From: a bacterium
GTDB lineage: Bacteria; UBA10199; JACPAL01; GCA-016699445
Assembly: GCA_035454885.1 (NCBI GenBank)
Contig: DATIGE010000021.1
Span: 8,897 to 72,896 of the forward strand
DNA length: 64,000 nt
Reading direction: 5' to 3'
Shown: positions 15,287-43,199 of the stretch, in pieces
Position numbering within the stretch: the stretch's first letter is position 1
How the letters are laid out: every line of letters starts with the position of its first letter
Notes under the pieces: generated by a model
Database searches by the model: none
Told to the model about the DNA's origin: nothing
The model's input: the letters and a program-made list of their open reading frames with translations, nothing else
Position numbers and translations under genes: made by a program

Positions 15287-15287
15287 T

Positions 15288-20411: not shown

Positions 20412-20421
20412 GGGAGTCTGT

Positions 20422-21387
20422 ATGTATACGACGGGATTATTGGGACAGCTCAATATGATGGCGGCGGGGCTCGGGAACTGGGTTCGCGCCGGGGCCCTGG
20501 CCTTGGGACTCTCCTCGATGAGCGGCGCGGTTGCTGGTTGCGGGTCCGGATCGGACCTTGGCGATTCGGGGATCGGTCCGATCGCCCCGCCGGATGGCAA
20601 TGACACGACGATCCCCAACACGCCCGAGGCCAATCTCGACGCCTGTCTCCCGGCCAATCCCCTGGGTAATCGCTTCAGCGTGCTTGTAGAAGGCGAGGGC
20701 GTCCGCCTGGGCGCGGGGACCCCGACCGACGGCAGCTTCCACATGGTCATGCCGAGTTCGAGTCTGACGATTTTGGGAAGCTCCGACGGACGGATCACGT
20801 TCCGCGGCCGCTTCAAATGGGACAGCGTCCCGTCCGAATGGGCGACGGTCGATCCCGACGCCCCGATCGGCCCTCTGGCCTTGTTCACCCAGGCCCGACA
20901 GTCCGGCCAGCCTCTCACGGACACGAATATGACCCGTGCGGGCCTGACCGGCCCCTGGGCGAATCAATTCCCGGCCTTCGCCGACAAGAACCGCGTGGGC
21001 TTCGCCTGGCCCGTGGAGGGCGTCCTCCATTTCGTCCGGGATTCGGCCGGCCATGTCTCCGATTGCGAGGTCGAGATGACCATCCGCTCCGCCGCCCGGA
21101 CCTCCAGCGGCATGGGACCCGCCCTGGACTACGGCGTCCTGTCGTTCTACGCGCCCCGCGCGGACGGCGAGGAGGCCATGGCGGAGGCGAATTTTGCCAA
21201 CGAAACCGTCGTCATCCTGGACGCTCCCATGGACGTCCTCTTGCCCGTCTCCGGTGAAGTCCAAGATGTCTGCGACGGCGATTGCGTCGACGTGCTCGGC
21301 GCCTCCAACCCCTCCCGCGTCCGCATGCGTCTGATCCGTTACACCCCAACGAGCGGAACGCCCGGCGACGGCGGTGCGGGCGGCTAG
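20422..21387 (+). CDS. hypothetical lipoprotein (321 aa)
   Basis: Signal and lipobox (AVAGC|GSGS). Starts 10 nt after the upstream stop. No known domain. Confidence 0.6.
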   Translation: MYTTGLLGQLNMMAAGLGNWVRAGALALGLSSMSGAVAGCGSGSDLGDSGIGPIAPPDGNDTTIPNTPEANLDACLPANPLGNRFSVLVEGEGVRLGAGTPTDGSFHMVMPSSSLTILGSSDGRITFRGRFKWDSVPSEWATVDPDAPIGPLALFTQARQSGQPLTDTNMTRAGLTGPWANQFPAFADKNRVGFAWPVEGVLHFVRDSAGHVSDCEVEMTIRSAARTSSGMGPALDYGVLSFYAPRADGEEAMAEANFANETVVILDAPMDVLLPVSGEVQDVCDGDCVDVLGASNPSRVRMRLIRYTPTSGTPGDGGAGG

Positions 21388-23353: not shown

Positions 23354-23422
23354 CTCTCGACAAACTCCTTGAGTTTTCTCTCCCCATTAGAGTAATCCAG
23401 CGGGTCTATTTCCAGACCACGC

Positions 23423-24850
23423 ATGCCAAAATTCTCTCGAAAAACCGCAGCCTTGCTGTTCTTTTTTTTCCTGTATCCGCTGCTTTCCGCGCCGGTTTCC
23501 GCCCAGCTTCTGGGCGGTGGCGACGAGGAGGAATCCTCCGGAAGGACGCTCGAGACGGCGACGGAGAAGGCGAAAAAGCTTTTCGGCGGCGGTTCCGGCG
23601 ATCTTCACCGTCTCACCCTCGACGACTGCGTCCAGAGGGCCCTTGTCTACCAACCCGAGCTGCAGGTGGCCGACTACAGCATCGAGACGGCCAAAGAGAA
23701 AAAAACCGAGGCGAGCCGCATCGGATATCCCATCTTTGATTACGAGTACCAGCTGGCGCCGGTCCCTCAGGACGTCGGCCGCGCGATGGAGAGTTTCTTT
23801 TCGGGCGATATCTCCGTCTTGAACAAGTTCAAGTTGGGCATCGGAGTCCCGATCAACACCTTCGGCAAGGTCAAGACGGGTAAATCACTGGCCGACACGG
23901 GCATCGAGGCCGAGCGGGAGAAGAAGACCCAGAAAAAAGGGGACATTGTCCTTAAGGTCAAACAGCTCTATTACGGCATCTTGCTCGCCGAGGAAGTGAG
24001 CCGCCTCTTGGACTCGGCGCATGGGGGTGTCGATAAGCAGATCAAGAAGAGGGAGGACGAAGGCGGCAGCGACCCCACCGAACTGCTCAAGCTCAAACTC
24101 TTCCGAGCGGAGCTGGAAAAGAAGATGGAGGAGGGCGACAAGAAGCAGATACTCGCCCGCGAGGCGCTGCGGGTCCAACTGGGTCTCGATCCCACGACGC
24201 GTTTCGACCTCGCGACCGACAAGCTCAGGCCGCTCGTGCGGAGGCTGGGTTCGTTCGAGGATTACAAGAAGGAAGCGTGGGAGAACCGCAGCGATCTCAA
24301 GCTCCTGGAGCTGGGTTACGAAGCCAAGGCCAAGCAAGTGAAGTTGGAGAAGAGGCTCATGGCCCCGAACCTCGGCGTGGGCGCGTTTTTCGAGATCGGC
24401 CGCGCGCCGGGCGTGACGGGCGTGACGACGACGGACGATTTCAGCGACCCGTTCAACTTCACGCGCGCCGGCATCGGCCTCCAGCTCAAAGGACAGTTCG
24501 ACTGGCATACGGGGTTTTCGAAAGTACGGCAGGCCAAGAGCGAACTCTACAAGATCGAGGTCCAGAAAGAGCTCGCCCAGGACGGCGTGGACTTGGACGT
24601 GAAGGAGGCCTTCCTGGACGTTCGGAACACCAAGTTGGATGTCGACCGGGCCGAGGAGGCGGGGAAGCTTTCGCGGCAGCTGCTTTTTCTCACACAGAGC
24701 AATTATGACATCGGGCTTGCGGAGCCCAAGGATTTGATCGAAGCTCTGTCCGGTTTTTTGCAGACGCGCGGACAGTACTTCGAGTCCGTGTTCAATTATA
24801 ACGTTGCGGTGGCCAAGCTGGACCAGAAGATCGGACGTTTGCCGGAATAG
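23423..24850 (+). CDS. TolC-family outer membrane efflux/channel protein
   Basis: Signal peptide. Two-repeat coiled-coil/beta architecture. Sequence resembles OEP-family proteins, for example DDCVQRALVYQPELQ...NYDIGLAEPKDLIEAL. Confidence 0.75.
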   Translation: MPKFSRKTAALLFFFFLYPLLSAPVSAQLLGGGDEEESSGRTLETATEKAKKLFGGGSGDLHRLTLDDCVQRALVYQPELQVADYSIETAKEKKTEASRIGYPIFDYEYQLAPVPQDVGRAMESFFSGDISVLNKFKLGIGVPINTFGKVKTGKSLADTGIEAEREKKTQKKGDIVLKVKQLYYGILLAEEVSRLLDSAHGGVDKQIKKREDEGGSDPTELLKLKLFRAELEKKMEEGDKKQILAREALRVQLGLDPTTRFDLATDKLRPLVRRLGSFEDYKKEAWENRSDLKLLELGYEAKAKQVKLEKRLMAPNLGVGAFFEIGRAPGVTGVTTTDDFSDPFNFTRAGIGLQLKGQFDWHTGFSKVRQAKSELYKIEVQKELAQDGVDLDVKEAFLDVRNTKLDVDRAEEAGKLSRQLLFLTQSNYDIGLAEPKDLIEALSGFLQTRGQYFESVFNYNVAVAKLDQKIGRLPE

Positions 24851-24910
24851 CCCCGCTTCCCGCGGGGCAGTGCTCGCTACTGCTCGTAAAGGAAGCTAGA
24901 GGAGATAGGA

Positions 24911-25693
24911 ATGAAAAAAATACTCATCGCAGTGGGACTGATCGCCCTGGCTGCCGCGTGTGGCGAGAAACCCGAAATCGTTCCGGTCCCCGCCAAGCCG
25001 GCGGAAGCTCCCTTGGCGCCCGCAGCCCCCACGCCGGCGGCCGAAGAAACGAAACCCTTCGTCATCCCCCCTGCGGCCAAGAAACAGGCCAAGTATTTTC
25101 CGGAAGGGTCGCCCAGCCGCGCCATCCAGGACCTGGACGACATGCTCGACTCCTACGTGCTCGATCCTCAAACCGCCGAGCAGAGGCAATACAACGAGGA
25201 CCTGAAGCGGACGGTCATCAAGGGGACCTTCGACATCCGGGAGCTTTGCCGGCTGGCCCTGGACAAGCATTGGGGCGAGCGTACGCCGCAGGAGCAGGAC
25301 GCGTTCGTGGACCTCATGATCCGCCTTCTGGAGAAGAAGGCCATTTTTTCCAAGGAGCAGGGTCAGAAAAAGGCCAAGAAATCGAAAAACGTCTACTCCG
25401 TGACCTACGAGGGGCACAAGTTCACGAACCCGAACGAGTTGAATGCCCTGGCCATGAGCCTCGTGCACATCCCGTCTGAGTCTCTCAAGATCGAGCTGAA
25501 CTACAAGCTCAAGAAGGACGGGGGTTCCGCCGGAGGCGGGTGGAAGATCTACGACGTGATCGTGGACGGGGCGAGCCTCTTGGACAACTATAAGTACCAA
25601 TTCGACAAGATCATCGCCAAAGAAGGATATCCCAACCTCGTCCACCGCATGGAGTCCAAGCTCAAAGAGTTGCAGGAAAAAGATCAGAAGTAA
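24911..25693 (+). CDS. mlaC: MlaC/Ttg2D-family phospholipid-binding lipoprotein
   Basis: Lipobox LAAAC, then a Pro/Ala linker, then LALDKHWGERTPQEQDAFVDLMIRLLEK...KIYDVIVDGASLLDNYKYQFDKII, which matches the Tgt2/MlaC fold signature. Confidence 0.65.
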   Translation: MKKILIAVGLIALAAACGEKPEIVPVPAKPAEAPLAPAAPTPAAEETKPFVIPPAAKKQAKYFPEGSPSRAIQDLDDMLDSYVLDPQTAEQRQYNEDLKRTVIKGTFDIRELCRLALDKHWGERTPQEQDAFVDLMIRLLEKKAIFSKEQGQKKAKKSKNVYSVTYEGHKFTNPNELNALAMSLVHIPSESLKIELNYKLKKDGGSAGGGWKIYDVIVDGASLLDNYKYQFDKIIAKEGYPNLVHRMESKLKELQEKDQK

Positions 25694-25696
25694 GGA

Positions 25697-27103
25697 ATGT
25701 ACAAACGTTGTGTGATGATATTGGCCGACGGGGCGCGCGCCGACGTGATGCGCGACATGGCCGAACGGGGCAAACTTCCCGCCATCTCGGAGCACCTGAT
25801 CGCGCCGGGTTCGCTCCGGGCGGCGGTCACGGCCTTTCCCTCCACGACGGGACCGGCCTACCTGCCCTATCTGACGGGCTGCTACCCCGGAACCTGCAAT
25901 CTTCCCGGCATCCGCTGGTTCGACAAGGACCGCTACGCGGAGCGGCGTTTCTCCATGGACCGGTTTCGCAGTTACGTGGGTGCGGAGTCGTTCTACATGA
26001 ACGGCGACCTGGCGCCCGACAAACGGACGTTGTTCGAGATCATCCCGAAATCGGTGAACGTCTTCAGCAGCATCAATCGCGGCGCCGGACTCAATGGGGA
26101 TCGGACGAAGTTTTCCCGCATCTGGTATTGGTATTACGCCCACCTGACCGACCGCTGGGGGTTGGTGGACGAGGCGGCGGGTGGAAAAGTCGTCGAGGCG
26201 CTGAAACGCGACCCCGAGTTCGTTTTCGCGGTCTTTCCGGCGATCGACGAGTATTCGCATCTTTCGAGCCCCTTTCACCCGCGCACGATCGCGGCCTACG
26301 AGGGGTTGGACCGGGCGGTCGGAAGGATCGTCGCCGCCCTCAAGGCGCGCGGCCAGATGGAGGAGACGGCGATCGTCATCGTCAGTGACCACGGTCTTTC
26401 CGAAACCTCCCGGCATTTCCCTCTCAACCAATTTTTGGAAAAATCGGGGATCGAGACTCTCTATTATCCGAAGATCCTTTTCAAAAAGCGTATTGAGGCC
26501 GCCAGCATGGTCTCGGGCAACGGCATGGCGAACGTCTACCTCAAGAACGGACGGGGCTGGAAGGGGCGCACCCCTTGGGAGCATCTGGCGTCCCGCGAGG
26601 ACCGTTTGATCGACCGGCTGTTGGAGCAACCGGAGGTGGATCTTCTGGCCGCCCAAAGGTCCGACGGGGCCGTCGTGGTGAAGAGCAAAAAGGGCGAGGC
26701 GGCGATCTCGGAAAACGGAAACATCCGCTATGAAACGAGCGGCGGCGATCCCTTCGGCTATACCGGTCTGCCCGCGGCGATGACCGAGCGCGAATCGTTA
26801 AGATTGACGGAAAAGACCGACTATCCCGACGCCCCGGCGCAGCTCTTGCAGATCTTCCGGTCCCGACGGGCGGGGGACGTCATCCTTTCGGCCGCCAAGG
26901 GCAGCGACCTGCGTCTCCGCTATGAGATCCACGAGCACAAGTCCTCGCACGGCGCGCTTCATTGGGAGCACATGCAGGTTCCCTTGGTGACGAACGTACG
27001 TCTCCCCGAGGGCCCCGTGCGTTCCGCGGACGTCTTTCCGACGGTCCTCAAGCTCCTGGGCCGCCCCATCCCGGCCGCCATCGACGGCCGTAGTCTCATC
27101 TAA
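25697..27103 (+). CDS. alkaline-phosphatase-superfamily type I phosphodiesterase/nucleotide pyrophosphatase-like protein
   Basis: ILADGARADV...FPSTTGPAYLPYLTG...VSDHG metal-binding motifs of the AlkP/NPP family. Confidence 0.7.
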   Translation: MYKRCVMILADGARADVMRDMAERGKLPAISEHLIAPGSLRAAVTAFPSTTGPAYLPYLTGCYPGTCNLPGIRWFDKDRYAERRFSMDRFRSYVGAESFYMNGDLAPDKRTLFEIIPKSVNVFSSINRGAGLNGDRTKFSRIWYWYYAHLTDRWGLVDEAAGGKVVEALKRDPEFVFAVFPAIDEYSHLSSPFHPRTIAAYEGLDRAVGRIVAALKARGQMEETAIVIVSDHGLSETSRHFPLNQFLEKSGIETLYYPKILFKKRIEAASMVSGNGMANVYLKNGRGWKGRTPWEHLASREDRLIDRLLEQPEVDLLAAQRSDGAVVVKSKKGEAAISENGNIRYETSGGDPFGYTGLPAAMTERESLRLTEKTDYPDAPAQLLQIFRSRRAGDVILSAAKGSDLRLRYEIHEHKSSHGALHWEHMQVPLVTNVRLPEGPVRSADVFPTVLKLLGRPIPAAIDGRSLI

Positions 27104-27137
27104 GAGATTGACTTTATTTGACGCAGGGTGTTAGCTC

Positions 27138-27746
27138 ATGAATGAGTATTCATTCATGGAAACTCGGTCGGAAAAATCGCTTCGCATCCTGGACGCCGCC
27201 ATCCGCGTCTTCGCCCGGAAGGGGTTTTACAACTCGACCATCGCCGACGTCGCCAAGATCGCCGAGGTGGCGGAAGGCACGATCTATCTCTACTTCAAGA
27301 ACAAGGACGACCTCCTCATCTCCATCTTCGAGCACAGCATGGACCTCTTCATCGAGGTGGCGAAGAAGGAGCTGGAAGGAATCGATGACCCAAAGGAAAA
27401 GCTGAAGAAGTTCATTAGCCTCCACCTGCGCCTCGTCCAAAAGAACCCGGAGTTGGCCCAGGTCCTCCAAATCGAGCTCAGGCAGTCGTCGAAGTTCATG
27501 AAGGAATACGAAGGCGGCAAGTTCAGCGAGTACCTGAACGTCGTCCGGGGCATCCTGGAAGAGGGGCAGGCCAAAGGCGTCTTCCGGAAGGACTTGGAGC
27601 CGCGCGTGCTCCGGCGGGCGATTTTCGGTTGTGTCGATGAGCTGGCGCTGGAGTGGCTCCTGATGACGAAGAAAAAATACAGTTTGGAGACCTGCGCGGA
27701 GCAGGTGGGTGACTTGTTCATTCGCGGGATCAGTAATCAATCATAA
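27138..27746 (+). CDS. TetR/AcrR-family transcriptional regulator (FadR-like position ahead of etfBA-acd)
   Basis: N-terminal HTH ILDAAIRVFARKGFYNSTIADVAKIAEVAEGTIYLYFKNKDDLL. Gene order matches the Bacillus/Thermus TetR-type FadR operons. Confidence 0.8.
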   Translation: MNEYSFMETRSEKSLRILDAAIRVFARKGFYNSTIADVAKIAEVAEGTIYLYFKNKDDLLISIFEHSMDLFIEVAKKELEGIDDPKEKLKKFISLHLRLVQKNPELAQVLQIELRQSSKFMKEYEGGKFSEYLNVVRGILEEGQAKGVFRKDLEPRVLRRAIFGCVDELALEWLLMTKKKYSLETCAEQVGDLFIRGISNQS

Positions 27747-27758
27747 CGAGGTGAACTT

Positions 27759-28535
27759 ATGAAAATCGCAGTCCTCATTAAGCAGGTGCCGGACACCGAG
27801 ACCAAGATCCGGATCAAGGCCGACTCGTCCGGAACCGAAGCGGACGGGATCAAGTACATCATCAGCCCCTACGACGAATATGCGGTCGAAGAGGCCCTCA
27901 AGACCAAGGAGAAGGCGGGAGCCGGCGAGGTGGTCGTCGTGTCTCTCGGTCCTGCGCGCTGCGTGGAGGCGATCCGCACGGCGCTTGCCATGGGCGCGGA
28001 CCGGGGGATCCACATCGACGACGGAGGCATTCCGATGGACCCCTTCGTGACCGCGAAGGTGCTTGCCAACGCCCTCAAGAACGAGAACCCGAGCATTATC
28101 TTCACCGGCAGGCAGGCCATCGACGACGATGCGGCCCAGGTGCCTCAGATGGTCGCCGAGTTCCTGAACCTCCCCCAGGTGATGATCGCCGAAAAATTCG
28201 AGCTGAACGCGGCCAAGAACGGGGCGACGGTTTATCGCCGCGTGGGCGGAGGGGCCAAGGAGGTCTACGATGTCGCGTTTCCGGCGCTCGTCGGCGCCGA
28301 GAAGGGGCTCAACACGCCGCGCTACGCGTCGCTTCCGGGCATCATGAAGGCAAAGACCAAGCCCATGGCGGCGCTCAAGGCGAGCGACCTGGTCGGCGAG
28401 GCCAAGCCCAAGACCGTTAACACGAACTACCGCCTGCCGCCCGAGCGGAAGGCCGGAAAGGTCCTGCAGGGCGAGCCCGAGCAGGTGGTGAAGGAGTTGG
28501 TGAAGCTGCTTCGTGAGGAAGCGAAGGTCATTTAA
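27759..28535 (+). CDS. etfB: electron transfer flavoprotein beta subunit
   Basis: MKIAVLIKQVPDTETKIRI...ISPYDEYAVEEAL canonical EtfB. Confidence 0.9.
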   Translation: MKIAVLIKQVPDTETKIRIKADSSGTEADGIKYIISPYDEYAVEEALKTKEKAGAGEVVVVSLGPARCVEAIRTALAMGADRGIHIDDGGIPMDPFVTAKVLANALKNENPSIIFTGRQAIDDDAAQVPQMVAEFLNLPQVMIAEKFELNAAKNGATVYRRVGGGAKEVYDVAFPALVGAEKGLNTPRYASLPGIMKAKTKPMAALKASDLVGEAKPKTVNTNYRLPPERKAGKVLQGEPEQVVKELVKLLREEAKVI

Positions 28536-28554
28536 CGATATTTAAGGAGAATTT

Positions 28555-29529
28555 ATGGGCAACATCTTAGTCATCGGCGAACATCAGGACGGAAAGGTCA
28601 AAAAAGTCACGCAGGAGTTGGTCACCAAGGCGGCCGAGCTCGCGGGCCAGATCGGCGGCGAGGTGGACGTCGTCCTTGTCGGACACGGGCTGCAGAACCC
28701 CGCGGAGTTGGGGTCCTTCGGGGCCAAGAAGGTCTATGTCGTCGACACCCCCAAGCTCGAGAAATACAACACGGAGGGCTGCGTGAAGGTCATCTCCGAC
28801 CTCGCCCAGGAAGCGAAACCCTCCGTCATTCTCGGAACCGCGAGTCCCCTGGGCAAGGACCTCCTTCCGCGCCTCGCCGCGCGCCTGAACGCCGGGCTTG
28901 CGGCCGATTGCACCGACCTTAAGATCGACGGGGGCAAGCTGGTGGCCACCCGTCCCATCTATTCCGGCAAGGCCTTCGTGGACGTGAAGTTCGAGGGCGA
29001 TCTCCAGATCGCCTCGGCACGCCCGAACTCGTTCGTCGCCAAGGCCGCCGGAGCGGGCGCGTCCGCCGAAGTCGTCCAAAAGAACATCGATCCCGGTGAG
29101 CTCCGGGCCGTCATGAAGGAAATCGTGAAGGGCAAGTCCGACAAGGCGGACCTGACGGAGGCGGCGGTCATCGTCTCGGGCGGCCGCGCCATGAAGGCGG
29201 CCGAGAACTTCAAGATTCTGAACGAGTTGGCCGACGTGATCGGGGCCACGGTGGGCGCCTCGCGCGCGGCGGTCGACTCGGGCTACGCGGCGCACGACAT
29301 GCAGGTGGGCCAGACGGGCAAGGTCGTCAACCCGAACCTCTACATCGCCTGCGGCATCTCCGGCGCCATCCAGCACCTGGCCGGCATGAGGACCTCCAAG
29401 GTGATCGTCGCGATCAACAAGGACCCGGAGGCCCCCATCTTCACCAAGGCGGATTACGGCATCGTCGGCGATCTCTTTCAGGTCGTCCCGTTGCTGACCC
29501 AGGAATTTAAAAAGGTCCTAACGGAATAG
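28555..29529 (+). CDS. etfA: electron transfer flavoprotein alpha subunit
   Basis: Canonical EtfA FAD-binding C-terminal domain ([10 protein letters not shown]...). Confidence 0.9.
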
Positions 29530-29539
29530 GAGACATACC

Positions 29540-31315
29540 ATGGCGGCACAGGCAACCGGCGGTTCCTTCCTCCTCGAAAAAACGGGCGAGCGCGAGATCT
29601 TTCTTCCGGAGGACTTGAGCGACGAGCAGAGGCAGTTGGCCGATCTCGTGAAGAACTTCATCCAGGGCGAGGTCCTGCCCCGGAGCGAGGACATCGAACA
29701 TCAGAAGTTCGACGTCACCGTCGGCCTGCTCAAGAAAGCAGGTGAGCTGGGTCTCTTGGCCGCCGAAGTTCCCGAAGAATTGGGCGGGCTCGCGATCAAC
29801 AAGGTGTCGACGGTCGCCATGGGCGAGAACTCCATCTACCAAGGCTCGTTCAGCGTTTCCCTCATGTGTCACACGGGCATCGGTTCGTGGCCGATCATGT
29901 ATTTCGGAACGCCCGAGCAGAAGAAAAAGTACCTGACGAAGCTGGCGACGGGCGAAATGATCGGCGCCTACTGTTTGACCGAGCCCTGTTCGGGATCGGA
30001 CGCCTTGGGCATGAAGTCGAAGGCGGTTCCTTCGGCGGACGGCAAGAGCTGGGTCCTGAACGGCGAGAAAACCTTCATCACCAACGGGGGCTTCGCCGAC
30101 CTCTATACCATCTTCGCGAAGACCGAAGGCGACAAGACGACGGCCTTTTTGGTCGAGCGCGGAACGCCCGGCCTGTCCACGGGCAAGGAAGAGAAGAAGA
30201 TGGGGATCAAGGGGTCCTCGACGACGCCGGTCGTGATGGAAAATTGCGTGATCCCCAAGGAGAACCTCCTGGGGGAAATCGGCAAGGGTCATAAGATCGC
30301 CTTCAACATCCTGAATCTTGGCCGTTTCAAGCTGGGTGTCGGCGCCACGGGCGCGTCCAAGTACCTGATCGGAGAGGCCGTCAAGTACGCGAAGGACCGG
30401 AAGCAGTTCGGCAAGTCCATCACCGACTTCGGCCTGATCCGAAAAAAGCTGGCGAACATGGCCTCGCGGACGTTCGTCTCGGAAAGCATGAATTACCGCA
30501 CGGCGGACCTGATGGATCAAAAGATCAAGGCCTTGGCCAAGGGGGACGCGTCCTACGATCAAAAAGTCATGGAGATTGTGGAAGAGTTCGCGATCGAATC
30601 GTCCATCGCCAAGATTTACGGATCGGAATGCGTCGACATGGTGGCCGACGAGGGCCTGCAGATTCTCGGCGGGTACGGTTTCCTCGAGGAATATCCCTTC
30701 GCCGCCGCCCTGCGGAACACGCGCATCAACCGGATCTTCGAGGGAACGAACGAAATCAACCGTCTCCTGATTCCGGCCATGCTGTTCAAGGCCGCAATGA
30801 AGGGGCAGTTGGAGCTGATGAACGCGATTTCCTCGGTGGTCGGCCAGCTGAAGGAAGGCTGGAAGAAGGAAGGGGACGGGCCGTTGGCGGATGAAATCCA
30901 CCAGGTCGAGTTGGCCAAGAAGCTGACGATCTATGCGGCCGGATGCGCGGCCCAGAAGTTCATGGATCAGTTGCGGGACAAGCAATACATCGCCGAATAC
31001 ATCGCGGACCTCGCCGTCGAGACTTACGCGATGGAGACGGCGGTCCTGCGCGCGGTCCAGCTCCGCAAGCGGTTCGGAGACAAGGCGACGCTGGCGGAAT
31101 CGATCATGAAACTTTTCGTCAACGAGGCATATCCCGAGATGCTCGTCCGGGCACGCCGCCTCCTTCTGGCGGTGGCCGAGGGGAATCAAGAGGAGTTCGG
31201 CAAGTACGCCAAGGCGCTGACGCGGTTCGATTACTTCAATCCGGTCGATACGACGGCCCTGCGGGACGGAATCGCTCAGGCGGTCATTGACCGCGAGGGC
31301 TATCGGATCGTATAG
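29540..31315 (+). CDS. long-form acyl-CoA dehydrogenase (about 590 aa, FadE/AcdA-like)
   Basis: ACAD N-terminal, middle and C-terminal domains (GAYCLTEPCSGSDALGMKSKAV...; YGGYGFLEEYP). Confidence 0.88.
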   Translation: MAAQATGGSFLLEKTGEREIFLPEDLSDEQRQLADLVKNFIQGEVLPRSEDIEHQKFDVTVGLLKKAGELGLLAAEVPEELGGLAINKVSTVAMGENSIYQGSFSVSLMCHTGIGSWPIMYFGTPEQKKKYLTKLATGEMIGAYCLTEPCSGSDALGMKSKAVPSADGKSWVLNGEKTFITNGGFADLYTIFAKTEGDKTTAFLVERGTPGLSTGKEEKKMGIKGSSTTPVVMENCVIPKENLLGEIGKGHKIAFNILNLGRFKLGVGATGASKYLIGEAVKYAKDRKQFGKSITDFGLIRKKLANMASRTFVSESMNYRTADLMDQKIKALAKGDASYDQKVMEIVEEFAIESSIAKIYGSECVDMVADEGLQILGGYGFLEEYPFAAALRNTRINRIFEGTNEINRLLIPAMLFKAAMKGQLELMNAISSVVGQLKEGWKKEGDGPLADEIHQVELAKKLTIYAAGCAAQKFMDQLRDKQYIAEYIADLAVETYAMETAVLRAVQLRKRFGDKATLAESIMKLFVNEAYPEMLVRARRLLLAVAEGNQEEFGKYAKALTRFDYFNPVDTTALRDGIAQAVIDREGYRIV

Positions 31316-31322
31316 ACTTCCC

Positions 31323-31799
31323 GTGACGCCCAAACCCGTTTCCGCCTCCTCGGCGGAGTTCACGCATCTGGTTCTTCCGCCCGACACGAACGCCCTCGGC
31401 ACGATCTTCGGCGGCAGGATCATGGAGTGGGTGGACATTGCGGGATCGATCGTCGCGAGCCGGCACTGCCGCCAGATTGTGGTGACCGCCTCGATGGACG
31501 CCCTTCATTTTCTGGCCCCGGTCAAGTTGGGAGACATCGTGATCCTCAAGGCGGCCGTCAACTTTACGCACCGCACCTCGCTGGAGATCGGCGTGCGAAT
31601 CGAGTCGGAGAATCCGCTGACGGGGGAGAGGCGTCACACCTCCAGCGCCTACCTGACGTTCGTCGCCTTGGACGCCGCCGGCAGGCCGGTGGCCGCGCCC
31701 GAGGTCCTGCCGCAGACGGAGGACGAGAAGCGGCGGTTTGAAGACGCCAAGAAGAGGTACGAATACCGCGTGAAAAACCGCCCACGCGCCAAGAAATAG
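31323..31799 (+). CDS. hotdog-fold acyl-CoA thioesterase (YciA-like)
   Basis: VLPPDTNALGTIFGGRIMEWVDIAGSIVA...LEIGVRIESE. GTG start 8 nt after the acd stop; an upstream TTG overlapping acd is the alternative. Confidence 0.75.
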   Translation: MTPKPVSASSAEFTHLVLPPDTNALGTIFGGRIMEWVDIAGSIVASRHCRQIVVTASMDALHFLAPVKLGDIVILKAAVNFTHRTSLEIGVRIESENPLTGERRHTSSAYLTFVALDAAGRPVAAPEVLPQTEDEKRRFEDAKKRYEYRVKNRPRAKK

Positions 31800-31802: not shown

Positions 31803-32972
31803 TTACTCACACGTTTCATGGCCGGGGTGCGCGTGAGTCTCCAGAGACTTCTCGTAGACCCGGTAGGTCTTGTAGTGTTCGCCGCCCATCATCTCGATGC
31901 CGAAATTGATCTTCTGATTGTCCTCGAGCGTCCATGAAAGCTCGCCGCCCCAGTGGCGCAGCTCCTGGGAACGGCGGTGCATCTCGACGTAGAGCAGGAC
32001 CGAGAGGCCCGCTCCCAAGGACTCCCTCCGGAACTCCTTCTTGATGCCCAAAAGGATCAGCCGGGCCGACTTAATTTTCTTGGTTTTGATCCGATAGAGG
32101 AGTTTAAAAAAACCGAAGGGTAAGAGTCGTCCGTTCAGGTCCTTGATCGCCTCATTGAGATTCGGGAGGGCAAAGGCGATGGCGGCGGGCCGTCCGTCCA
32201 CCTCGGCGATGAGCGCCAACTTTGGCTCCATCAGCAGTTTAAAGTCTTTCGCCGCCTTCCGGATCTCGTTCTCGGTCAGCGGGACGAAAGCCCAGTTCTT
32301 CTCCCAGGCCGAGTTGAAGACGTCGATCAGGATGCGGACGTCACGATCGAGGTCTTTCGGATCGACCTCGCGGATGACGAGTCCCGGATGCTTTCGCGCC
32401 TCCTCGGCCAATTGCAGGGCGGCTTCGGGCGCGGGGCGCGAAGAATCGTACCGCCAGCAATAGAAATCCTTGAGCTTCTTGAGCCCCCAGCCCTCCAGGA
32501 GTCCAGCGTAATAGGGCCGCGTATGGGCCATGAGGACGAAGGGGGGGTGTTCCTGGCCTTTGACGACCACGCCCAATTCCTCGTTGATCGAGAAGCTGAA
32601 GGGCCCGCGCATCGAAGTCATGCCGCGCGCCTTGAGCCAGCCGGAGGCGTTCTCCAGGAGACAGTTTGCGACCTCGGGGTCGTTCACGCACTCGAAGAGA
32701 CCGAAAAAGCCCGTCTGTTCGTTGTGGGTCCGGTTGTGCAAGTGGTCGATCTGGGCGGAGATCCTTCCGACGGGATGGCCGTCCTTTTCAGCCAGGAAGA
32801 GCGCGACGTCGGCATGCTCGAAGAAGGGATTCTTCTTGGGGTTCAGAAAGTCCCGCCGCTCCTGGAGGAGGGGGGGCACCCAGGCCGGGTCGTCCCGGTA
32901 AAGGGTCCAGGGAAGGCGGATGAACCGTTCGCGTTCCGAACGGCTGGTGACGGGACGGATCGTCAGAGGCAT
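31803..32972 (-). CDS. BioF2-like GNAT (FemAB-like fold) N-acyltransferase, 389 aa
   Basis: About 390 aa two-lobed GNAT-like protein, immediately downstream of and co-oriented with an alpha-oxoamine synthase. From memory this matches the 'BioF2-like acetyltransferase' family; see finding. Confidence 0.55.
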   Translation of the reverse strand: MPLTIRPVTSRSERERFIRLPWTLYRDDPAWVPPLLQERRDFLNPKKNPFFEHADVALFLAEKDGHPVGRISAQIDHLHNRTHNEQTGFFGLFECVNDPEVANCLLENASGWLKARGMTSMRGPFSFSINEELGVVVKGQEHPPFVLMAHTRPYYAGLLEGWGLKKLKDFYCWRYDSSRPAPEAALQLAEEARKHPGLVIREVDPKDLDRDVRILIDVFNSAWEKNWAFVPLTENEIRKAAKDFKLLMEPKLALIAEVDGRPAAIAFALPNLNEAIKDLNGRLLPFGFFKLLYRIKTKKIKSARLILLGIKKEFRRESLGAGLSVLLYVEMHRRSQELRHWGGELSWTLEDNQKINFGIEMMGGEHYKTYRVYEKSLETHAHPGHETCE

Positions 32973-34241
32973 CTACCCGATTCCGTAGTTCTTCGCGACC
33001 TTGCGGAAGGCCTCGAGGGCGCGGGACAGATGCTCCTCCGTGTGGGTCGCGAGGGTGCTCGTACGGAGCATCTCCTTGCCTTTGGCCACGGCGGGGTAGA
33101 GGACGGGGTTGGTGTAGACGCCCGCGTCCAGGAGCTCCTTCCAGACCATCCAGGTCATCATGCTCTCGCCGATGACGACGGGGACGACCGCGGCTTGGGC
33201 CTGTCCGGTCTGATACCCGATCTCCGAAAGGCCCTTTTTCAGGAAGGCGGCGTTCTTCCGCACCGCGACGGCGCGTTCCGGCTCCTGGATCAGGATGTCC
33301 AGGGCGGCGCTGGCCGCGGCGGCGCAGCTGGGGGCGAGCGAGGCCGAAAAGATCATGGGGCGGCCGAAGTGCTTGATGAAGTTGATGACCAGCCGGTCGC
33401 CTGCCACGAAACCGCCGATCGAGGCGAGGCTCTTGCTGAAGGTCCCGACGATCAGGTCCACTTGGTCGTTGACTCCAAGTTGATGGCAGGTGCCGCGCCC
33501 GCCGGGCCCCAGGACGCCCAACCCGTGCGCGTCGTCGACGGCGAAACGGACCTTGTGCTTCTTCACGAGCGGGACCATCTCGGGAAGAGGCCCCAGATCC
33601 CCCTCCATGCTGTAGACCCCGTCGACAAAGAGGAGGGCGCCGGTCTCTTGGGGGATGCCGGAGAGGATACGGTCCAATTCGGCCAAATCGTTGTGAGGGA
33701 ACCGGATGGTTTCCCCCTCCATCAGGCGGCAGCCGTCGTGGATGCTCGCGTGGGCGAACCGGTCGACGACGGCGACGGATTTCTTGTTGATGAGCGCCGT
33801 GAGCATGCCGAGATTCGCCTGATACCCCGTGGTGAAGACGAGGGCGGCCTCCTTGCCCAGGAAGGCCGCGAGCTTCGCCTCCAGCTCTTCATGAATGGGC
33901 ATCGTTCCGTTCAAGAAGCGGGATCCCGTCATGCTGGTGCCGTATTTGCGGACGGCCTCGATCGCCGCCTCGCGCACCTTCGGATGGGTCGTGAGTCCCA
34001 GGTAGTTGTTGGATCCCAGCATCACGACCTCGCGGCCTTGATAGCGCGCGATGGGACCCTGGTTTTCCTCGATGGGGCGGAAGTAGGGATAAAGATCGGT
34101 GCCGGTGACCTCCTCGAGGACGCTCCAGCCGTAGGCCTTCGCCAGGACGTCGCGCCCGCCCTTTTCCCACTGGCTCGTCCAGTTCGAAAGATCGGCTTGC
34201 GTGTCATTCGGGGACGGTGCTTCGGCCAGGGCTTTGCTCAT
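32973..34241 (-). CDS. PLP-dependent alpha-oxoamine synthase (8-amino-7-oxononanoate synthase/serine palmitoyltransferase family)
   Basis: GSNNYLGL...GTFSKSL...(PLP Lys) conserved blocks of the BioF/Spt/Kbl family. No other biotin genes in the window. Confidence 0.85.
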   Translation of the reverse strand: MSKALAEAPSPNDTQADLSNWTSQWEKGGRDVLAKAYGWSVLEEVTGTDLYPYFRPIEENQGPIARYQGREVVMLGSNNYLGLTTHPKVREAAIEAVRKYGTSMTGSRFLNGTMPIHEELEAKLAAFLGKEAALVFTTGYQANLGMLTALINKKSVAVVDRFAHASIHDGCRLMEGETIRFPHNDLAELDRILSGIPQETGALLFVDGVYSMEGDLGPLPEMVPLVKKHKVRFAVDDAHGLGVLGPGGRGTCHQLGVNDQVDLIVGTFSKSLASIGGFVAGDRLVINFIKHFGRPMIFSASLAPSCAAAASAALDILIQEPERAVAVRKNAAFLKKGLSEIGYQTGQAQAAVVPVVIGESMMTWMVWKELLDAGVYTNPVLYPAVAKGKEMLRTSTLATHTEEHLSRALEAFRKVAKNYGIG

Positions 34242-34253
34242 GAGTCTCCTTCG

Positions 34254-36263
34254 TTAGACGATCGACTCCGCGAGGAGTTCGACCACGTCCTTGGTCTGGA
34301 TGTTTTCGATGCCCTTGTCGTGCGTGGCGTCCTTGAGCATGGTGATGCAGAAGGGACAGGCGCTGGCGATGACGTTCGGGTTGGCCGTCTGAAGGTCTTC
34401 CAGGCGCTGGTGGTTCACGCGCTTGCCGACGCGCTCCTCCATCCACATCCGTCCGCCTCCGGCCCCGCAGCAGCGGCCCTTGTCCTTGGAGAGAGGGACA
34501 TCCTTCACCTCGGCCCCGGGGATCGATTTCAGGATCTCGCGCGGGGCGTCGTAGACCTCGTTGTACCGGCCCAGGTAACAGGAGTCGTGATACGTGACGG
34601 ACTGAGGCAGCGGCCGCGCCGGCGTGAGCCGGCCTTCGCGGATCAGCCCGTATAGGAACTCCGTATGGTGGACGACCTCGTAATTTCCGCCCAGCTGCGG
34701 GTACTCGTTCTTGATCGTGTTGAAGCAATGCGGGCACGCGGTGATGACCTTTTTGAACTTGTAGCGGTTCATCGTCTCGACGTTGGTCTTGGCGAGCGTC
34801 TGGTAGAGGTACTCGTTGCCGATGCGCCGGGCGGGGTCGCCCGTGCAGTTCTCTTCCTTGCCCAGGATGGCGAAGTCGACGCCCGCTTTCTGGAGCATCT
34901 TCACGAGGGCGGTGGCGATCCTCGTATTCCGGTCGTCGAAGGAGCCCGCGCAGCCGACGAAGTAGAGGTATTCCGCCGTCGGGTGGTCCGCCATCATCTT
35001 GACGCCCAGGCTTTTGCACCACTCGGCGCGGTCGCTGGCGGCGATGCCCCAGGGGTTGGAGTTGACCTCGAGGTTCCTGAAGGTCGCCTGGACCTCGGTG
35101 GGCATCACGCCCTGGGTCAGGACCATGTGCCGGCGAACGTCCACGATACGGTCGACGAATTCGATGCCGACGGGGCAGGCTTCTTCACAAGCTCTGCAGG
35201 TGGTACACGACCAAAACACCTCCGGATCAATCGCAAAGGGCGTAATCCATTTTTCGGTCCCTTCGGGTAGAGTTCCGTCGCCCTCGCGCAGCGCGTGGGG
35301 TTTCCAGCCGCCGTGCGAGCCGCCGAGTTTGTACTCCTGGCGGAGCCACTCGCGCTCGTCGATGTTGATCTGTTTGGGGCTCAAGACCTTGCCCGTGTTG
35401 AACGCCGGACACATCGACGAGCAGCGCCCGCACTCCGTGCAGGTGGCGACGTCCAGGAGGTCCTTCCAGGTCATATCGGTCAGTTTCGCCGTACCGAACG
35501 AGGTCGCGTTCGGGTCCTCGAGGTTCAGCATGCGCAATTGGCCCAGGGGAGTCGTTCGGAGGAAGAAGACGTTCGGCAGAAAGGTGAAGACGTGAAAGTG
35601 TTTCCCATAGGGGAGAAAGTTCAGGAAGACGAGGATCAGGCCGACATGGACGAGATAGGAGACGTTCGCGATCTGCCCAAGCGCCGCCGGAGAGAGATTG
35701 GCCGCATGAAACGCCAGTCCGAACATCGCGGAGATCGGCGCCCAGCCGGCGTGGGTCATGTTATGCGCCAGATGCGCGCCTTCGAAGACGAAATCCGTCA
35801 GGCACAGCATGAAGATCATGAAGAGGATGAAAACGGCCTCGATCGACGGCGTCAGACGGCTTACCTTGAGGATGACGCGCCGGTAGACCGCATAGCTGAC
35901 GGCGACCATGACCAGGAGCAAGATCAGGTTCAGGAGAAACGTGTAGGCCAATCCCGGCAGGCTTTCCGCTAACCCCGAACCGAACGTCGGCGAGAATCCC
36001 ATGCCGAAGAGGAGGATCGTCCGGAGCCCGATGATGCAAAAGCCCCAGAAGATGATCGCGTGCATGAGGCCGGCCTTGAGATCGCCCTTGATGATCTTCG
36101 TCTGGGCGAAGGCGATCGTGATCAGGTTCTTCACCCGCTTCGGATAGTCGTTGAACCGGGCGTCCGGTTTGCCCGAGCCGATGACCTTCCACCAGCGCGA
36201 GACCGAGAAGGCGAAGAAGGATAGGGCCACGGCGAGCATGAGTGCGACGGTGATCGGGAACAT
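34254..36263 (-). CDS. membrane-anchored Fe-S oxidoreductase with 2x[4Fe-4S] ferredoxin motifs and C-terminal CCG (HdrD/GlpC-like) domains
   Basis: N-terminal about 230 aa with multiple TM helices. Motifs CTECGRCSSMCP and CTTCRACEEACP, then two Cys-rich CCG-type domains (CPHCFNT...; CCGAGGG...ACPFC). Confidence 0.8.
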   Translation of the reverse strand: MFPITVALMLAVALSFFAFSVSRWWKVIGSGKPDARFNDYPKRVKNLITIAFAQTKIIKGDLKAGLMHAIIFWGFCIIGLRTILLFGMGFSPTFGSGLAESLPGLAYTFLLNLILLLVMVAVSYAVYRRVILKVSRLTPSIEAVFILFMIFMLCLTDFVFEGAHLAHNMTHAGWAPISAMFGLAFHAANLSPAALGQIANVSYLVHVGLILVFLNFLPYGKHFHVFTFLPNVFFLRTTPLGQLRMLNLEDPNATSFGTAKLTDMTWKDLLDVATCTECGRCSSMCPAFNTGKVLSPKQINIDEREWLRQEYKLGGSHGGWKPHALREGDGTLPEGTEKWITPFAIDPEVFWSCTTCRACEEACPVGIEFVDRIVDVRRHMVLTQGVMPTEVQATFRNLEVNSNPWGIAASDRAEWCKSLGVKMMADHPTAEYLYFVGCAGSFDDRNTRIATALVKMLQKAGVDFAILGKEENCTGDPARRIGNEYLYQTLAKTNVETMNRYKFKKVITACPHCFNTIKNEYPQLGGNYEVVHHTEFLYGLIREGRLTPARPLPQSVTYHDSCYLGRYNEVYDAPREILKSIPGAEVKDVPLSKDKGRCCGAGGGRMWMEERVGKRVNHQRLEDLQTANPNVIASACPFCITMLKDATHDKGIENIQTKDVVELLAESIV

Positions 36264-36481: not shown

Positions 36482-37996
36482 ATGGGGAAGAAATTTCTTT
36501 TTGCCACGGTCTTTATCTGCGGAATGTCGGTGATGGCGGTCGAGCTGACCGCCTCCCGGCTGCTCGCGCCGTATTTCGGGACGTCTCTCTTCGTCTGGAC
36601 CAATTTGATCGGCGTCGTCCTCCTGGCCCTCTCCCTGGGGTATTACTGGGGCGGAAAACTTGCGGATCGGAACGGGGGAAGGAACGCGCGCCGGGACCTT
36701 TTCCTCCTAATCCTCACGACGGGCATTCTCGTCGGCGCCATCCCCTGGATCGCCGGACCGATCTTCCGCTTTTCTTATGAGGCGATGCCTCGATCGGGGT
36801 TATCGATCTTTTTTCCGTCCCTTGTCTCGATTCTCGTCCTTTTTACGTTGCCGCTCCTCTTTCTCGGGATGGTGACGCCTCTGGCCGTCCGCATCGGCAT
36901 CCGGGACCCGGACTCGGCGGGGCGCGTGGTCGGATCCCTCTACGCCTTTTCGACGGTCGGAAGCATTGTCGGCACTTTCCTGCCGGTCCTCTTGACGATC
37001 CCCTTTTGGGGTTCCCGCGAGACCTTTTACGTCTTCGGAGTCCTTTTGATCCTCTTGGGCGGCGCCGGCCTCAAACGGCCTTTCGTTTCCCTCGTCGCCT
37101 GTGTTCCGTTCGTCTGGGCGCTCCTGGTTCCCTCGACTCATGGGAGGGCGGATATCGAACTCGAAAAGGAATCGGTTTATAATCTCGTCCGCGTCCGGAG
37201 GCTTCCGAACGATTCCCGAACTCTCATCATCAACGAGGGGATCGGAGCGCAATCGATCTATCATCCCTCGCGAATCTTCACGCATTTTTACTGGGATGGG
37301 GCCGTCCTCTTGCCGCTCCTTCGCCCGGAAGGGGAAAGCTTTCTCTTCATCGGAGTGGCGGGCGGGACGAGCGCGCGGCTGGTCCATCATTTTTTCCCTT
37401 CGCTGAATTTGGACGGGGTCGAGATCGATCCCGTCATCGCGGACGCCGGCCGGAGGTTTTTCGGATTGGATCAGTTTCCGTTCGACATTCACGTCGGGGA
37501 CGGGCGGGTCTTTTTGGAGCGGCAAGAGAAAAAATACGATTTCATCATGGTGGACGTCTACCATGACAACCTGTTCATTCCGTTTCATCTGGCGACACGG
37601 GAGTTTTTCGAAACGGTCCGCCGCCGGCTCGCTCCGCGGGGCGCCATGGTCATGAACGTCTTCTCCCCCCGGGGCGAGACGGATCTGCTTCGGCTGATGA
37701 AAAATACGGTCGCCTCCGTTTTCCCTTTTGTCTATGAGTATCGCGTGAGGGATCTCGGGTCGCTTCTTTACGCTTTTCAGGAAGGGCCGGATCCGGGATC
37801 GTTCCCTTCGCCGGGCCTGGATCCCGATCTTCAAGAGCTCGCCGCGAAGATTCTCGACCAATGGAAACCGGTTGCCGCCGATCCTCGCGGAGCGATCTCC
37901 ACGGACGATCGGCCGCTTGTGGAACTCCTGGCGGCCCAGTCCATCTTTTTCGATTTGCCGAGCGTGAAGCCGTACTCGTTTGAGGCGCCTCGATAG
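36482..37996 (+). CDS. fused membrane domain plus spermidine-synthase-like (polyamine aminopropyltransferase family) protein
   Basis: N-terminal about 220 aa with 6-7 TM helices. C-terminal region reads [13 protein letters not shown]...GVEIDPVI...DFIMVDVY, typical of the SpeE-like methyltransferase fold. Confidence 0.65.
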
Positions 37997-38066
37997 GACG
38001 AGGGTCCGCCGAAATGATGTTGACTTTAAGGGGGGGTGGTTGGCAGAACTTCCCTTCCTCAAAGAT

Positions 38067-39617
<1,551 letters not shown>

Positions 39618-39619
39618 CG

Positions 39620-41119
39620 ATGTTCAAGAAAGTCCTCATCGCCAACCGCGGAGAGATCGCCCTGAGGGTCATCCGCGCCTGCCGCGAGGTCGGCATCCAG
39701 ACGGTGGCGGTTTATTCCGAAATCGACCGGGCCTCCCTCCACGTCCGCTTCGCCGACGAGGCGTACGGCATCGGCCCGGCGCCCGCCAAGGAGAGCTATC
39801 TCGTCGCCGAAAAGATCCTCGAGGTCGCCAAGCAGACGAAGGCCGAGGCGATCCATCCGGGCTACGGATTTCTCTCCGAGAACGCCGATTTCTCCGACGA
39901 GTGCCGCAAGGCCGGCATCCAGTTTATCGGCCCGCGCGGCGATTCCATGCGGATGCTGGGCGACAAGATCGCCGGGCGGCGGACGGCCGAGAAGGTGGGC
40001 GTCCCGGTGGTTCCCGGCATCAAGGACCCCCTGAAGGACGCCGCGGAAGCCCGGAAGATCGCCGATAAGATCGGATACCCCGTCCTCCTCAAGGCGCGGG
40101 CCGGCGGCGGCGGCAAGGGGATGCGCAAGGTCCAGAAGCCCGAGGAGATCGAGTCGGCCTTCCGCCTGGCCTCCTCCGAGGCGGCGTCGTCCTTCAAGGA
40201 TCCGGCCCTCTACATCGAGAAGTACGTCGAGGAGCCGCATCACATCGAGGTCCAGATCCTGGGTGACCGCCACGGCAACGTCGTGGCCCTGGGCGAGCGC
40301 GAATGTTCGGTGCAGCGTCGCCATCAGAAGATCATCGAAGAGAGCCCGTCGCCCTACATCACGTCCGAGACGCGCAAGAAATTGCTCGAAGCCGCCGTCA
40401 TTCTCGGCAAGGAGGCCAAGTACGAGAACGCGGGCACGATGGAGTTTCTGGTCGACAAGAACCAGAATCACTTCTTTCTCGAAATGAACGCCCGCCTGCA
40501 GGTCGAGCACCCCATCACCGAGATGGTGACGAATATCGACTTGGTGCGCGCGCAATTGAGGATCGCGGGGGGAGAAAAACTCGAGGACATCCTGCCGAAG
40601 GAACGGGAACCGAGAGGGCATTCCATCGAATGCCGGATCTACGCCGAGGATCCGGACATGGACTTCATCCCGTCCCCGGGCTTCGTCAAAAAATCGCGGA
40701 GTCCCGAGGGCAACTGGGTGCGCGTGGATTCGGCGGTCTATTCCGGAAGCACCATCTCCGTCTATTACGACCCGATGATCGCAAAGCTCATCACGTGGGG
40801 ACGCGACCGGACGGACGCCATCCTTCGGATGGAAAGGGCGCTCAAGGAGTACCAGGTCGTCGGCGTGAAGACGAACATCGCCTTTCATGAAGCCGTTCTC
40901 TCGCATCCGGCCTTCCGCAAGGGGCATTATGACACGGGTTTCGTGGAACGCAGCATGGCGGAGCTCAAGCGCAAGTCGCACGAAGGCTACGCGGACATCG
41001 CCGCGCTGGCCGCGGTGGTTCATCAGATGAGGAAGAAGGGCGTAGGGGCGCATGGCCAGGCGCCCGTACAGGGGCCCTCCCCCTGGAAGATGGCGGGTCG
41101 GAAGGAGGGGCTGCGTTGA
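39620..41119 (+). CDS. accC: biotin carboxylase subunit
   Basis: MFKKVLIANRGEIALRVIRA... ATP-grasp biotin carboxylase. Starts 3 nt after the pccB stop. Confidence 0.9.
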   Translation: MFKKVLIANRGEIALRVIRACREVGIQTVAVYSEIDRASLHVRFADEAYGIGPAPAKESYLVAEKILEVAKQTKAEAIHPGYGFLSENADFSDECRKAGIQFIGPRGDSMRMLGDKIAGRRTAEKVGVPVVPGIKDPLKDAAEARKIADKIGYPVLLKARAGGGGKGMRKVQKPEEIESAFRLASSEAASSFKDPALYIEKYVEEPHHIEVQILGDRHGNVVALGERECSVQRRHQKIIEESPSPYITSETRKKLLEAAVILGKEAKYENAGTMEFLVDKNQNHFFLEMNARLQVEHPITEMVTNIDLVRAQLRIAGGEKLEDILPKEREPRGHSIECRIYAEDPDMDFIPSPGFVKKSRSPEGNWVRVDSAVYSGSTISVYYDPMIAKLITWGRDRTDAILRMERALKEYQVVGVKTNIAFHEAVLSHPAFRKGHYDTGFVERSMAELKRKSHEGYADIAALAAVVHQMRKKGVGAHGQAPVQGPSPWKMAGRKEGLR

Positions 41120-41600
41120 GATTTAATGCCGTCATCGGCGGCGCGGAAAAGATCCCGGTCGAAAAGATCGAAGACGGGAGGTTCCGCGTTGGCGAGAAGG
41201 AGCGCGAGGTCTCGGTCGAGGTGATCGAGGAGGGCGTCTATTCGCTCATCGTGGACGGGCAGTCCTACGAGGTGGCCGTTCGCGAGGACAAGAAGGGAAT
41301 GACGGTCGAGATCGGGGCCCACGCCATTCCCGTGAAGCTCGAGGACCCGTTCCAGGCCCGCTCCGCGTCCGGCAAGGGCGCCCTTGAGGGCGAAGCGGTG
41401 ATTTCTTCGCCCATGCCGGGCCGCGTGGTCGGCCTCAAGGTGGAGGCCGGGCAGGCGGTCAAGGAGGGGGACGGCGTTGTTCTGGTCGAAGCGATGAAGA
41501 TGGAGAACGAGCTTCACGCCCCCAAGGACGGCAAGATAAAATCCATCCTGGTCAAGGTCGGAGAAGCCGTCGAGGGCGGACAGGACTTAGTCGTCATCGA

Positions 41601-41604
<4 letters not shown>
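41116..41604 (+). CDS. biotin carboxyl carrier protein (small biotinyl subunit)
   Basis: C-terminal biotinyl domain with EAMKMENE motif. TTG start overlapping the accC stop. Its own stop overlaps the mutase start. Confidence 0.8.

Positions 41605-43195
<1,591 letters not shown>

Positions 43196-43199
<4 letters not shown>

Follow-up and report, generated by a model that had tools for sequence, protein, structure and literature searches.

A predicted serine palmitoyltransferase and bacterial ceramide synthase gene pair beside fatty-acid oxidation genes in an uncultured deltaproteobacterial/Myxococcota-like lineage

A bacterial pathway to ceramide has been described in which serine palmitoyltransferase (Spt), the acyltransferase bCerS and the reductase CerR act in that order, the keto reduction by CerR being periplasmic (PMC11087976). 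In Caulobacter the acyltransferase is CC_1154 (CCNA_01212), which is genetically required for ceramide and was named CerS or bCerS (PMC11087976). Escherichia coli BL21(DE3) carries five dihydroceramide genes together, with yghO (ECD_02850) as the counterpart of CC_1154 (PMC9386255; 44% identity, E = 1e-107, 98% coverage in its Supplementary Table 2); the order at that locus is yghO, fatty acyl-AMP ligase, NAD-epimerase, acyl carrier protein (ACP), spt. Clustering of Spt, bCerS and CerR genes is already described in the literature. The Spts of Bacteroidetes and delta-proteobacteria are united in one subgroup, without the AcpR and AasR partners (a dedicated ACP and an acyl-ACP synthetase) of Rhodobacteria (PMC9386255). 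Here we describe two adjacent genes in a 64,000-nucleotide (nt) stretch of contig DATIGE010000021.1 (the window; all coordinates are positions in the whole window unless a related locus is named) that, judged from their sequences, very probably encode the first two enzymes of this pathway, Spt and bCerS. They stand on the minus strand behind a third gene:

31803..32972, minus strand: bcerS, encoding a 389-amino-acid (aa) tandem-GNAT protein (from the list of open reading frames, ORFs)
32973..34241, minus strand: spt, encoding a 422-aa alpha-oxoamine synthase (AOS) (from the ORF list)
34254..36263, minus strand: gene for a 669-aa membrane FeS oxidoreductase (FeSox), the first gene of the operon (two PF02754 CCG domains and Fer4 families)

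An earlier note on this DNA had placed a 422-aa AOS and a 389-aa protein at 31803-34241, exactly as the ORFs are listed. The TAA stop of the FeSox gene is followed by 12 nt containing a Shine-Dalgarno sequence (AAGGAG) and then by the ATG of the AOS gene, whose TAG stop in turn abuts the ATG of the 389-aa ORF with no spacer. These junctions are so short that the three genes are taken as a single tight operon. On the far side, only 3 nt separate the stop of the 389-aa ORF from that of a convergent thioesterase gene. A plus-strand ORF of 755 aa (32388..34655) overlaps these three genes; long antisense ORFs of this type also lie over other real genes (for example 29507-31438 on the minus strand) and are expected at about 62% G+C. 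Searches of the 64-kb window turned up no tRNA genes and no Rfam family at gathering score, and a promoter scan gave nothing informative.

The family assignment that the earlier note gave to the 422-aa protein holds: it matches PF00155 (E = 1.8e-58) and scores strongly against Spt, BioF and Kbl models. The top NCBIfam model is Spt-CFB, the Spt of Bacteroidota (456.7 bits, cutoff 640); the Betaproteobacteria Spt model gives 393.4 bits (cutoff 500), a BioF/Kbl-related subfamily 372.5, BioF 359.2, Kbl 356.6 and the Alphaproteobacteria Spt model 315.8 bits (cutoff 670). No non-Spt equivalog cutoff is passed either, TIGR00858 (BioF) reaching 359 against a cutoff of 426. Since all scores lie below the curated cutoffs, profile scores alone are not decisive for this protein.

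The closest sequence in the PDB is the crystallized Spt of Sphingobacterium multivorum (SmSPT; 3a2b, 8guh; E = 7e-108), to which the AOS aligns at 45% identity, ungapped over 381 residues. Crystallography of SmSPT has named the residues at the acyl pocket and those around the pyridoxal phosphate (PLP) and the carboxylate and hydroxyl of serine (PMC10196870), and 16 of these 18 active-site and pocket residues are identical in the AOS, including Asn52, Gly80, Ser81, His138, Asp210, His213, Thr241, Ser243 and Lys244 (SmSPT numbering). In the AOS, K270 (motif GTFSKSLAS) is the PLP lysine, and H164, D236 and H239 make up the His/Asp/His set of catalytic residues; the four align with SmSPT K244, H138, D210 and H213. 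The 18 residues differ at two positions, where contact runs through the main chain: Tyr replaces Phe114, and Ile replaces Met271. Both are also stand-alone soluble enzymes whose genes have no ACP gene beside them, which fits the acyl-CoA-using Bacteroidetes/delta-proteobacterial subgroup; the protein from the window differs in having about 26 extra N-terminal residues.

Phylogenetic placement gave the same picture. A small, distance-based neighbor-joining tree (32 sequences, 393 columns, 100 bootstraps) took in Spt, BioF and Kbl from the E. coli BL21 genome and three PDB sequences; ALAS and CqsA, which score much lower than Spt against the AOS in the NCBIfam and PDB searches, were left out. 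The AOS, every GNAT-adjacent AOS of related genomes, and SmSPT form a clade with 96% bootstrap support, which the rhodobacterial Spts join at 79%, and BioF and Kbl of E. coli, as well as Thermus BioF/Kbl, all fall outside the Spt clade. Identity is 41% to E. coli BL21 Spt and 29% to E. coli BioF. The placement, for which the earlier note had called with a BioF grouping in mind as the outcome that would speak against its proposal, agrees with the Bacteroidetes/delta-proteobacterial Spt subgroup of PMC9386255, and the 422-aa AOS is accordingly annotated here as a predicted serine palmitoyltransferase of the Bacteroidota/delta-proteobacterial subgroup.

The same data bear on a housekeeping role, in which the AOS would be BioF or Kbl, serving biotin synthesis or threonine catabolism, and its adjacency to an unrelated small-molecule acetyltransferase would be coincidental. 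The AOS shares 40% identity with Thermus BioF/Kbl, the BioF and Kbl models reach 359 and 357 bits, and genes for a biotin-dependent propionyl-CoA carboxylase lie nearby in the window; in one related locus (L001) a gene for a BioB-like radical-SAM/BATS protein lies two genes upstream of the AOS-GNAT pair. Set against this are the position of BioF and Kbl in the tree, the lack of any bioA, bioB, bioD or tdh in the window (the earlier note's statement that bioA, bioB and bioD are missing is borne out among the roughly 50 ORFs scanned), the recurrence of the AOS-GNAT adjacency over several phyla, also as a single fused protein, and the full-length homology of the GNAT protein to YghO/bCerS. We regard a housekeeping role as very improbable, and BioF/Kbl was rejected as an annotation on the tree and the missing bio genes.

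Another amino acid could be used within the same two-enzyme logic: condensation of cysteate (giving capnine and, after N-acylation by the GNAT protein, a sulfonolipid) or of alanine or glycine (giving 1-deoxy bases and a 1-deoxyceramide). Cysteate-C-fatty acyltransferases are clear homologs of the AOS (28eh, E = 3.9e-73; 7u7h, E = 1.1e-69), the AOS fails to reach the curated Spt cutoffs, and SmSPT itself takes Ala and Gly at low efficiency. Moreover, 1-deoxy- and sulfono-ceramides have been reported in anoxic waters and attributed in part to Desulfobacterota. Characterized Spts are nevertheless by far the better match (E = 7e-108 versus 3.9e-73), the AOS lies within the 96% clade with SmSPT, and the SmSPT residues that touch the serine hydroxyl and carboxylate are all conserved in it. 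We therefore consider a different amino acid unlikely; the conserved contacts are suggestive of L-serine as the substrate of the predicted Spt.

The 389-aa protein is harder to place by standard profiles. It has no Pfam or NCBIfam match at E < 0.01 (the best is PF00583, E = 0.084), and a search of PDB sequences returned only noise and no relative. Its family is nonetheless large, with more than 6800 clusters at 90% identity, and a 50%-identity library holds 8464 representatives at E <= 1e-3, 1557 of them at E <= 1e-30; members that carry a name at all are called 'N-acetyltransferase' and come from metagenome-assembled genomes (MAGs) labeled 'Deltaproteobacteria bacterium'. Among 30 relatives, PF00583 is matched by 22 (best E = 8e-9) and PF13480 by two (best E = 3.6e-5). 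An AlphaFold model built on the family alignment is of high confidence (pLDDT 91.2, pTM 0.87), has no evident transmembrane region, and finds as its top Foldseek matches the tandem GNATs 5kf1, 2wpw, 7q3a and MshD (E = 1e-13 to 1e-10, TM-score 0.56-0.62).

A link to function comes through YghO. Over 376 of its 389 residues the window protein shares 38% identity with YghO of E. coli BL21 (E = 9e-95), and 50 positions are invariant among the two proteins and nine homologs drawn from Sorangium, Polyangium, Anaeromyxobacter, Labilithrix, Gemmatimonadota, Planctomycetota, Dehalococcoidia and Nitrospirales. Inspection of the alignment reveals an acyl-CoA loop motif, FR...LG.GLS (FRRESLGAGLS, at about residues 314-324), in the C-terminal lobe only; that lobe would hold the acyl-CoA loop and most of the invariant residues, as in MshD-type enzymes. 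Likeness to the Caulobacter CC_1154 and E. coli YghO proteins extends to the length class (about 375-390 aa), full-length co-linearity, the GNAT superfamily, and partnership with spt and a CerR-type gene. The tandem GNATs of known structure, namely the mycothiol synthase MshD (1ozp, 2c27), the Clostridium acetobutylicum glucosamine N-acetyltransferase 5kf1 and 2wpw of the clavulanate pathway, share the two fused lobes but are only 12-15% identical, and they transfer acetyl groups to sugars or thiols rather than a long acyl chain to a sphingoid base.

On the strength of the YghO homology, the 389-aa protein is a putative bacterial ceramide synthase of the YghO/CC_1154 family and not a member of Acetyltransf_6/FemAB, the Pfam families against which the earlier note had suggested checking it. 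That note was correct about the fold in describing a two-lobed GNAT; its labels 'BioF2-like' and 'FemAB-like' find little backing, in view of the missing Pfam match of the protein itself, the two PF13480 matches among 30 relatives and a FemX TM-score of 0.44. Were it a FemAB/FemX-type transferase, the protein would use aminoacyl-tRNA to build peptidoglycan bridges or aminoacylate lipids instead of N-acylating from acyl-CoA. Foldseek does return FemX, the C-terminal domains of MprF/aminoacyl-PG synthases and the tRNA-dependent Sbb17/Sba18 (E = 1e-7 to 1e-10), and PF13480 is touched by those two relatives. FemX is, however, a much poorer match (E about 8e-8) than the acyl-CoA-dependent tandem GNATs at the top of the list, PF00583 is matched by 22 of the 30 relatives, the protein is homologous to YghO/CC_1154, and its conserved gene partners are Spt and CerR, not cell-wall genes. 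A FemAB-type activity, which on peptidoglycan bridges would have spoken against the earlier note's proposal, thus seems scarcely credible, and the FemAB/Acetyltransf_6 annotation was rejected (no PF13480 or PF02388 match, in addition to the poor fit to FemX). An N-acyl amino acid synthase of the OlsB type was also set aside, with no test aimed at it, homology, fold and synteny all favoring bCerS.

The C-terminal tail of the protein (residues 378-389, with 381-389 modeled as disordered; 31803-31838, minus strand) is short, disordered and His/Cys-rich (HAHPGHETCE, pLDDT < 50). Such a tail is found in the closest bCerS clade, with relatives ending in (D/E)ECG; YghO and most of the family are without it.

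Gene context in other genomes is what would be seen for a ceramide pathway enzyme. A scan of one genome per species yielded at least 583 relatives of the GNAT protein, and tblastn was used to survey the context of the best 80 loci, which are mostly from Myxococcota, with others from Gemmatimonadota, Planctomycetota, Nitrospirota and Dehalococcoidia MAGs. In about 24 of these 80 loci the GNAT gene is immediately preceded by a same-strand AOS gene, in about 40 it is immediately followed by a gene for a CerR-like NAD-epimerase, and eight (L005, L011, L013, L019, L034, L039, L045 and L077) have the full AOS-GNAT-epimerase triad. The downstream epimerase is homologous to the BL21 'epi' protein, the CerR counterpart (E = 9e-41 in L003, 3e-19 in L005). 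Fused proteins occur in the representative library: P0198 (780 aa) is a natural Spt-bCerS fusion, its AOS half 47% identical to the window Spt; P0169 (630 aa) joins a fatty-acid hydroxylase domain to a bCerS-type GNAT; and P0121 (784 aa) is a tandem duplication of the bCerS-type GNAT. Both synteny and fusions fit a ceramide pathway enzyme.

Other genes near the pair were noted at two loci. In L001 (6761-13628) a gene for a PAP2_3 phosphatase/transferase precedes the pair and an FA_hydroxylase gene follows it; in L009 (3207-4691 and 11132-14722) genes for a GT2/GT21-like glycosyltransferase and a 1196-aa Ser/Thr kinase-TPR protein lie nearby. The PAP2_3/PAP2, FA_hydroxylase and glycosyltransferase-type neighbors look like candidate ceramide head-group and hydroxylation genes. 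Queries for PAP2 and fatty-acid hydroxylase gave no tblastn match in the 64-kb window.

From gene structure, homology, fold, phylogenetic placement, conserved synteny and fusions we infer the following substrates, order of steps and product. The PLP-dependent Spt would condense L-serine with a long-chain acyl-CoA, releasing CO2 and CoA, to give 3-ketosphinganine. The bCerS, a soluble tandem GNAT acting in the cytoplasm, would then use an acyl thioester to attach a second acyl chain to the amino group, and the product would be N-acyl-3-ketosphinganine (3-keto-dihydroceramide, or 'oxidized ceramide'). A CerR-type NAD(P)H reductase encoded outside the window would reduce the 3-keto group, yielding dihydroceramide for the outer membrane. 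No gene for a dedicated ACP (AcpR) or acyl-ACP synthetase (AasR) was found in the window, and because the Spt subgroup is also one without AcpR and AasR, the acyl chains most likely come from the acyl-CoA pool. The earlier note had proposed an Spt-like condensation followed by N-acylation by the GNAT protein to give a ceramide-like or N-acyl-amino-ketone lipid, and the Spt clade, the YghO homology, the synteny with CerR and the fusions all speak for that proposal.

Several points weigh against this assignment. The AOS falls under all three NCBIfam Spt equivalog cutoffs (NF047600, NF047599 and NF047603), which belong to clade-specific models for Bacteroidota, Betaproteobacteria and Alphaproteobacteria, the lineage of the window being outside all three. 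Amino-acid and acyl-chain specificity are not readable from sequence, and activity here is predicted from genes. The link of the GNAT protein to Caulobacter bCerS is indirect, passing through YghO and a published table (PMC9386255). A tblastn search of the window with CerR-like queries found no homolog, and homologs of AcpR and AasR are missing from the window as well. The closest species-level relative, L005, has a CerR-like gene directly after the GNAT gene, which the window does not.

Compared with the rhodobacterial clusters, Caulobacter CC_1154 with CC_1162-1165 and BL21 yghO-aasR-epi-acpR-spt, the window has the same Spt and bCerS families and the same pathway logic. The rhodobacterial clusters add AcpR, AasR and CerR beside spt, and none of the three is in the window. 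The window bcerS abuts spt directly, whereas its Caulobacter and E. coli counterparts stand apart from spt or are divergent to it. E. coli K-12 is reported to have no intact cluster of the BL21 type. In contrast to the Rhodobacteria branch of bCerS, the window protein belongs to a large branch of Myxococcota and 'Deltaproteobacteria' MAGs whose ceramide synthase activity is predicted. Finally, the window pair, unlike the rhodobacterial clusters, shares an operon with FeSox and faces beta-oxidation genes. The convergent operon (27138..31799, plus strand) comprises, by Pfam and NCBIfam matches:

27138-27746, plus strand: TetR/YsiA-type regulator
27759-28535, plus strand: etfB
28555-29529, plus strand: etfA
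29540-31315, plus strand: acyl-CoA dehydrogenase (acd)
31287-31799, plus strand: 4HBT/YciA-like acyl-CoA thioesterase

FeSox combines an N-terminal transmembrane region with two 4Fe-4S motifs and two CCG domains, which we take to be the architecture of the quinone oxidoreductases associated with electron transfer flavoprotein (Etf:quinone oxidoreductases) in anaerobic fatty-acid oxidizers. The order FeSox-spt-bcerS is kept in at least five related genomes (L088, L089, L008, L009 and L005, the last with an insertion of cstA), the FeSox, spt and bcerS genes overlapping or lying 0-12 nt apart. The linkage is absent from the other approximately 75 bCerS loci, and is for that reason a lineage-specific arrangement. 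In L088 and L089, whose GNAT proteins are 86% and 72% identical to that of the window, the block next to the pair is conserved as well: HAD, TolC-like, MlaC, phosphodiesterase, TetR, etfBA, acd and thioesterase genes, the convergent bcerS-spt-FeSox genes, and propionyl-CoA carboxylase. The arrangement may reflect shared ancestry only, or the use of a catabolic acyl-CoA pool.

It is possible, though we think it rather unlikely, that ceramide synthesis is hard-wired to fatty-acid beta-oxidation in this lineage, with spt and bcerS carried on the FeSox transcript and drawing on catabolic acyl-CoA without AcpR or AasR. The two genes may then respond to the same acyl-CoA-sensing TetR regulator as the beta-oxidation genes. 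In a stronger variant, unreduced 3-keto-dihydroceramide could be the end product, no cerR being linked; alternatively, condensation of 2-enoyl-CoA made by the dehydrogenase could lead to a 4,5-unsaturated base. The evidence that bears on such wiring is synteny, that is, the conserved operon.

The surroundings of the pair are as the earlier note had described them, with HAD-IB, TolC-like, MlaC, phosphodiesterase, TetR, etfB, etfA, acyl-CoA dehydrogenase and 4HBT thioesterase genes all present. Upstream of the TetR gene, in a plus-strand block (21449-31799) that is syntenic in L088 and L089, lie genes for a 634-aa HAD-IB protein, a TolC-like protein, an HpnM-like MlaC and a type-I phosphodiesterase; the MlaC, TolC-like and phosphodiesterase genes may together form a module for lipid trafficking or head groups, perhaps one that acts on ceramide. 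On the other side (37980-43199, plus strand) are propionyl-CoA carboxylase and methylmalonyl-CoA mutase genes. Farther away, five consecutive large ORFs (377, 1212, 337, 1366 and 321 aa; 10474-21387, plus strand) have no Pfam match; the 1212-aa ORF weakly matches TIGR04201, a Cys-rich repeat of Myxococcales, a hint that the contig may be of Myxococcota-like origin. The stretch 45259-53133 resembles a duplicated surface-protein module: proteins of 680 and 944 aa bearing Dictyostelium-type CTDC Cys-rich repeats are interleaved there with OmpA-domain proteins of 466 and 450 aa.

Overall, the two genes make up an ordinary Spt-bCerS module of a described pathway in a new lineage, unusual only in its wiring to fatty-acid degradation genes. 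The Spt-bCerS assignment is a confident one, and the lineage to which it extends the module is uncultured and 'deltaproteobacterial'/Myxococcota-like. The bCerS/YghO family is very large, yet this member has no Pfam or NCBIfam match, so automated annotation will go on naming such proteins 'N-acetyltransferase' or 'hypothetical'. The abutment of spt and bcerS and the natural fusions are of use when sphingolipid producers are mapped in metagenomes, as is the bridge through E. coli YghO, a cheap means of recognizing the pathway. The conserved FeSox operon is a small, testable hint that some anaerobes may feed ceramide synthesis from the beta-oxidation acyl-CoA pool.

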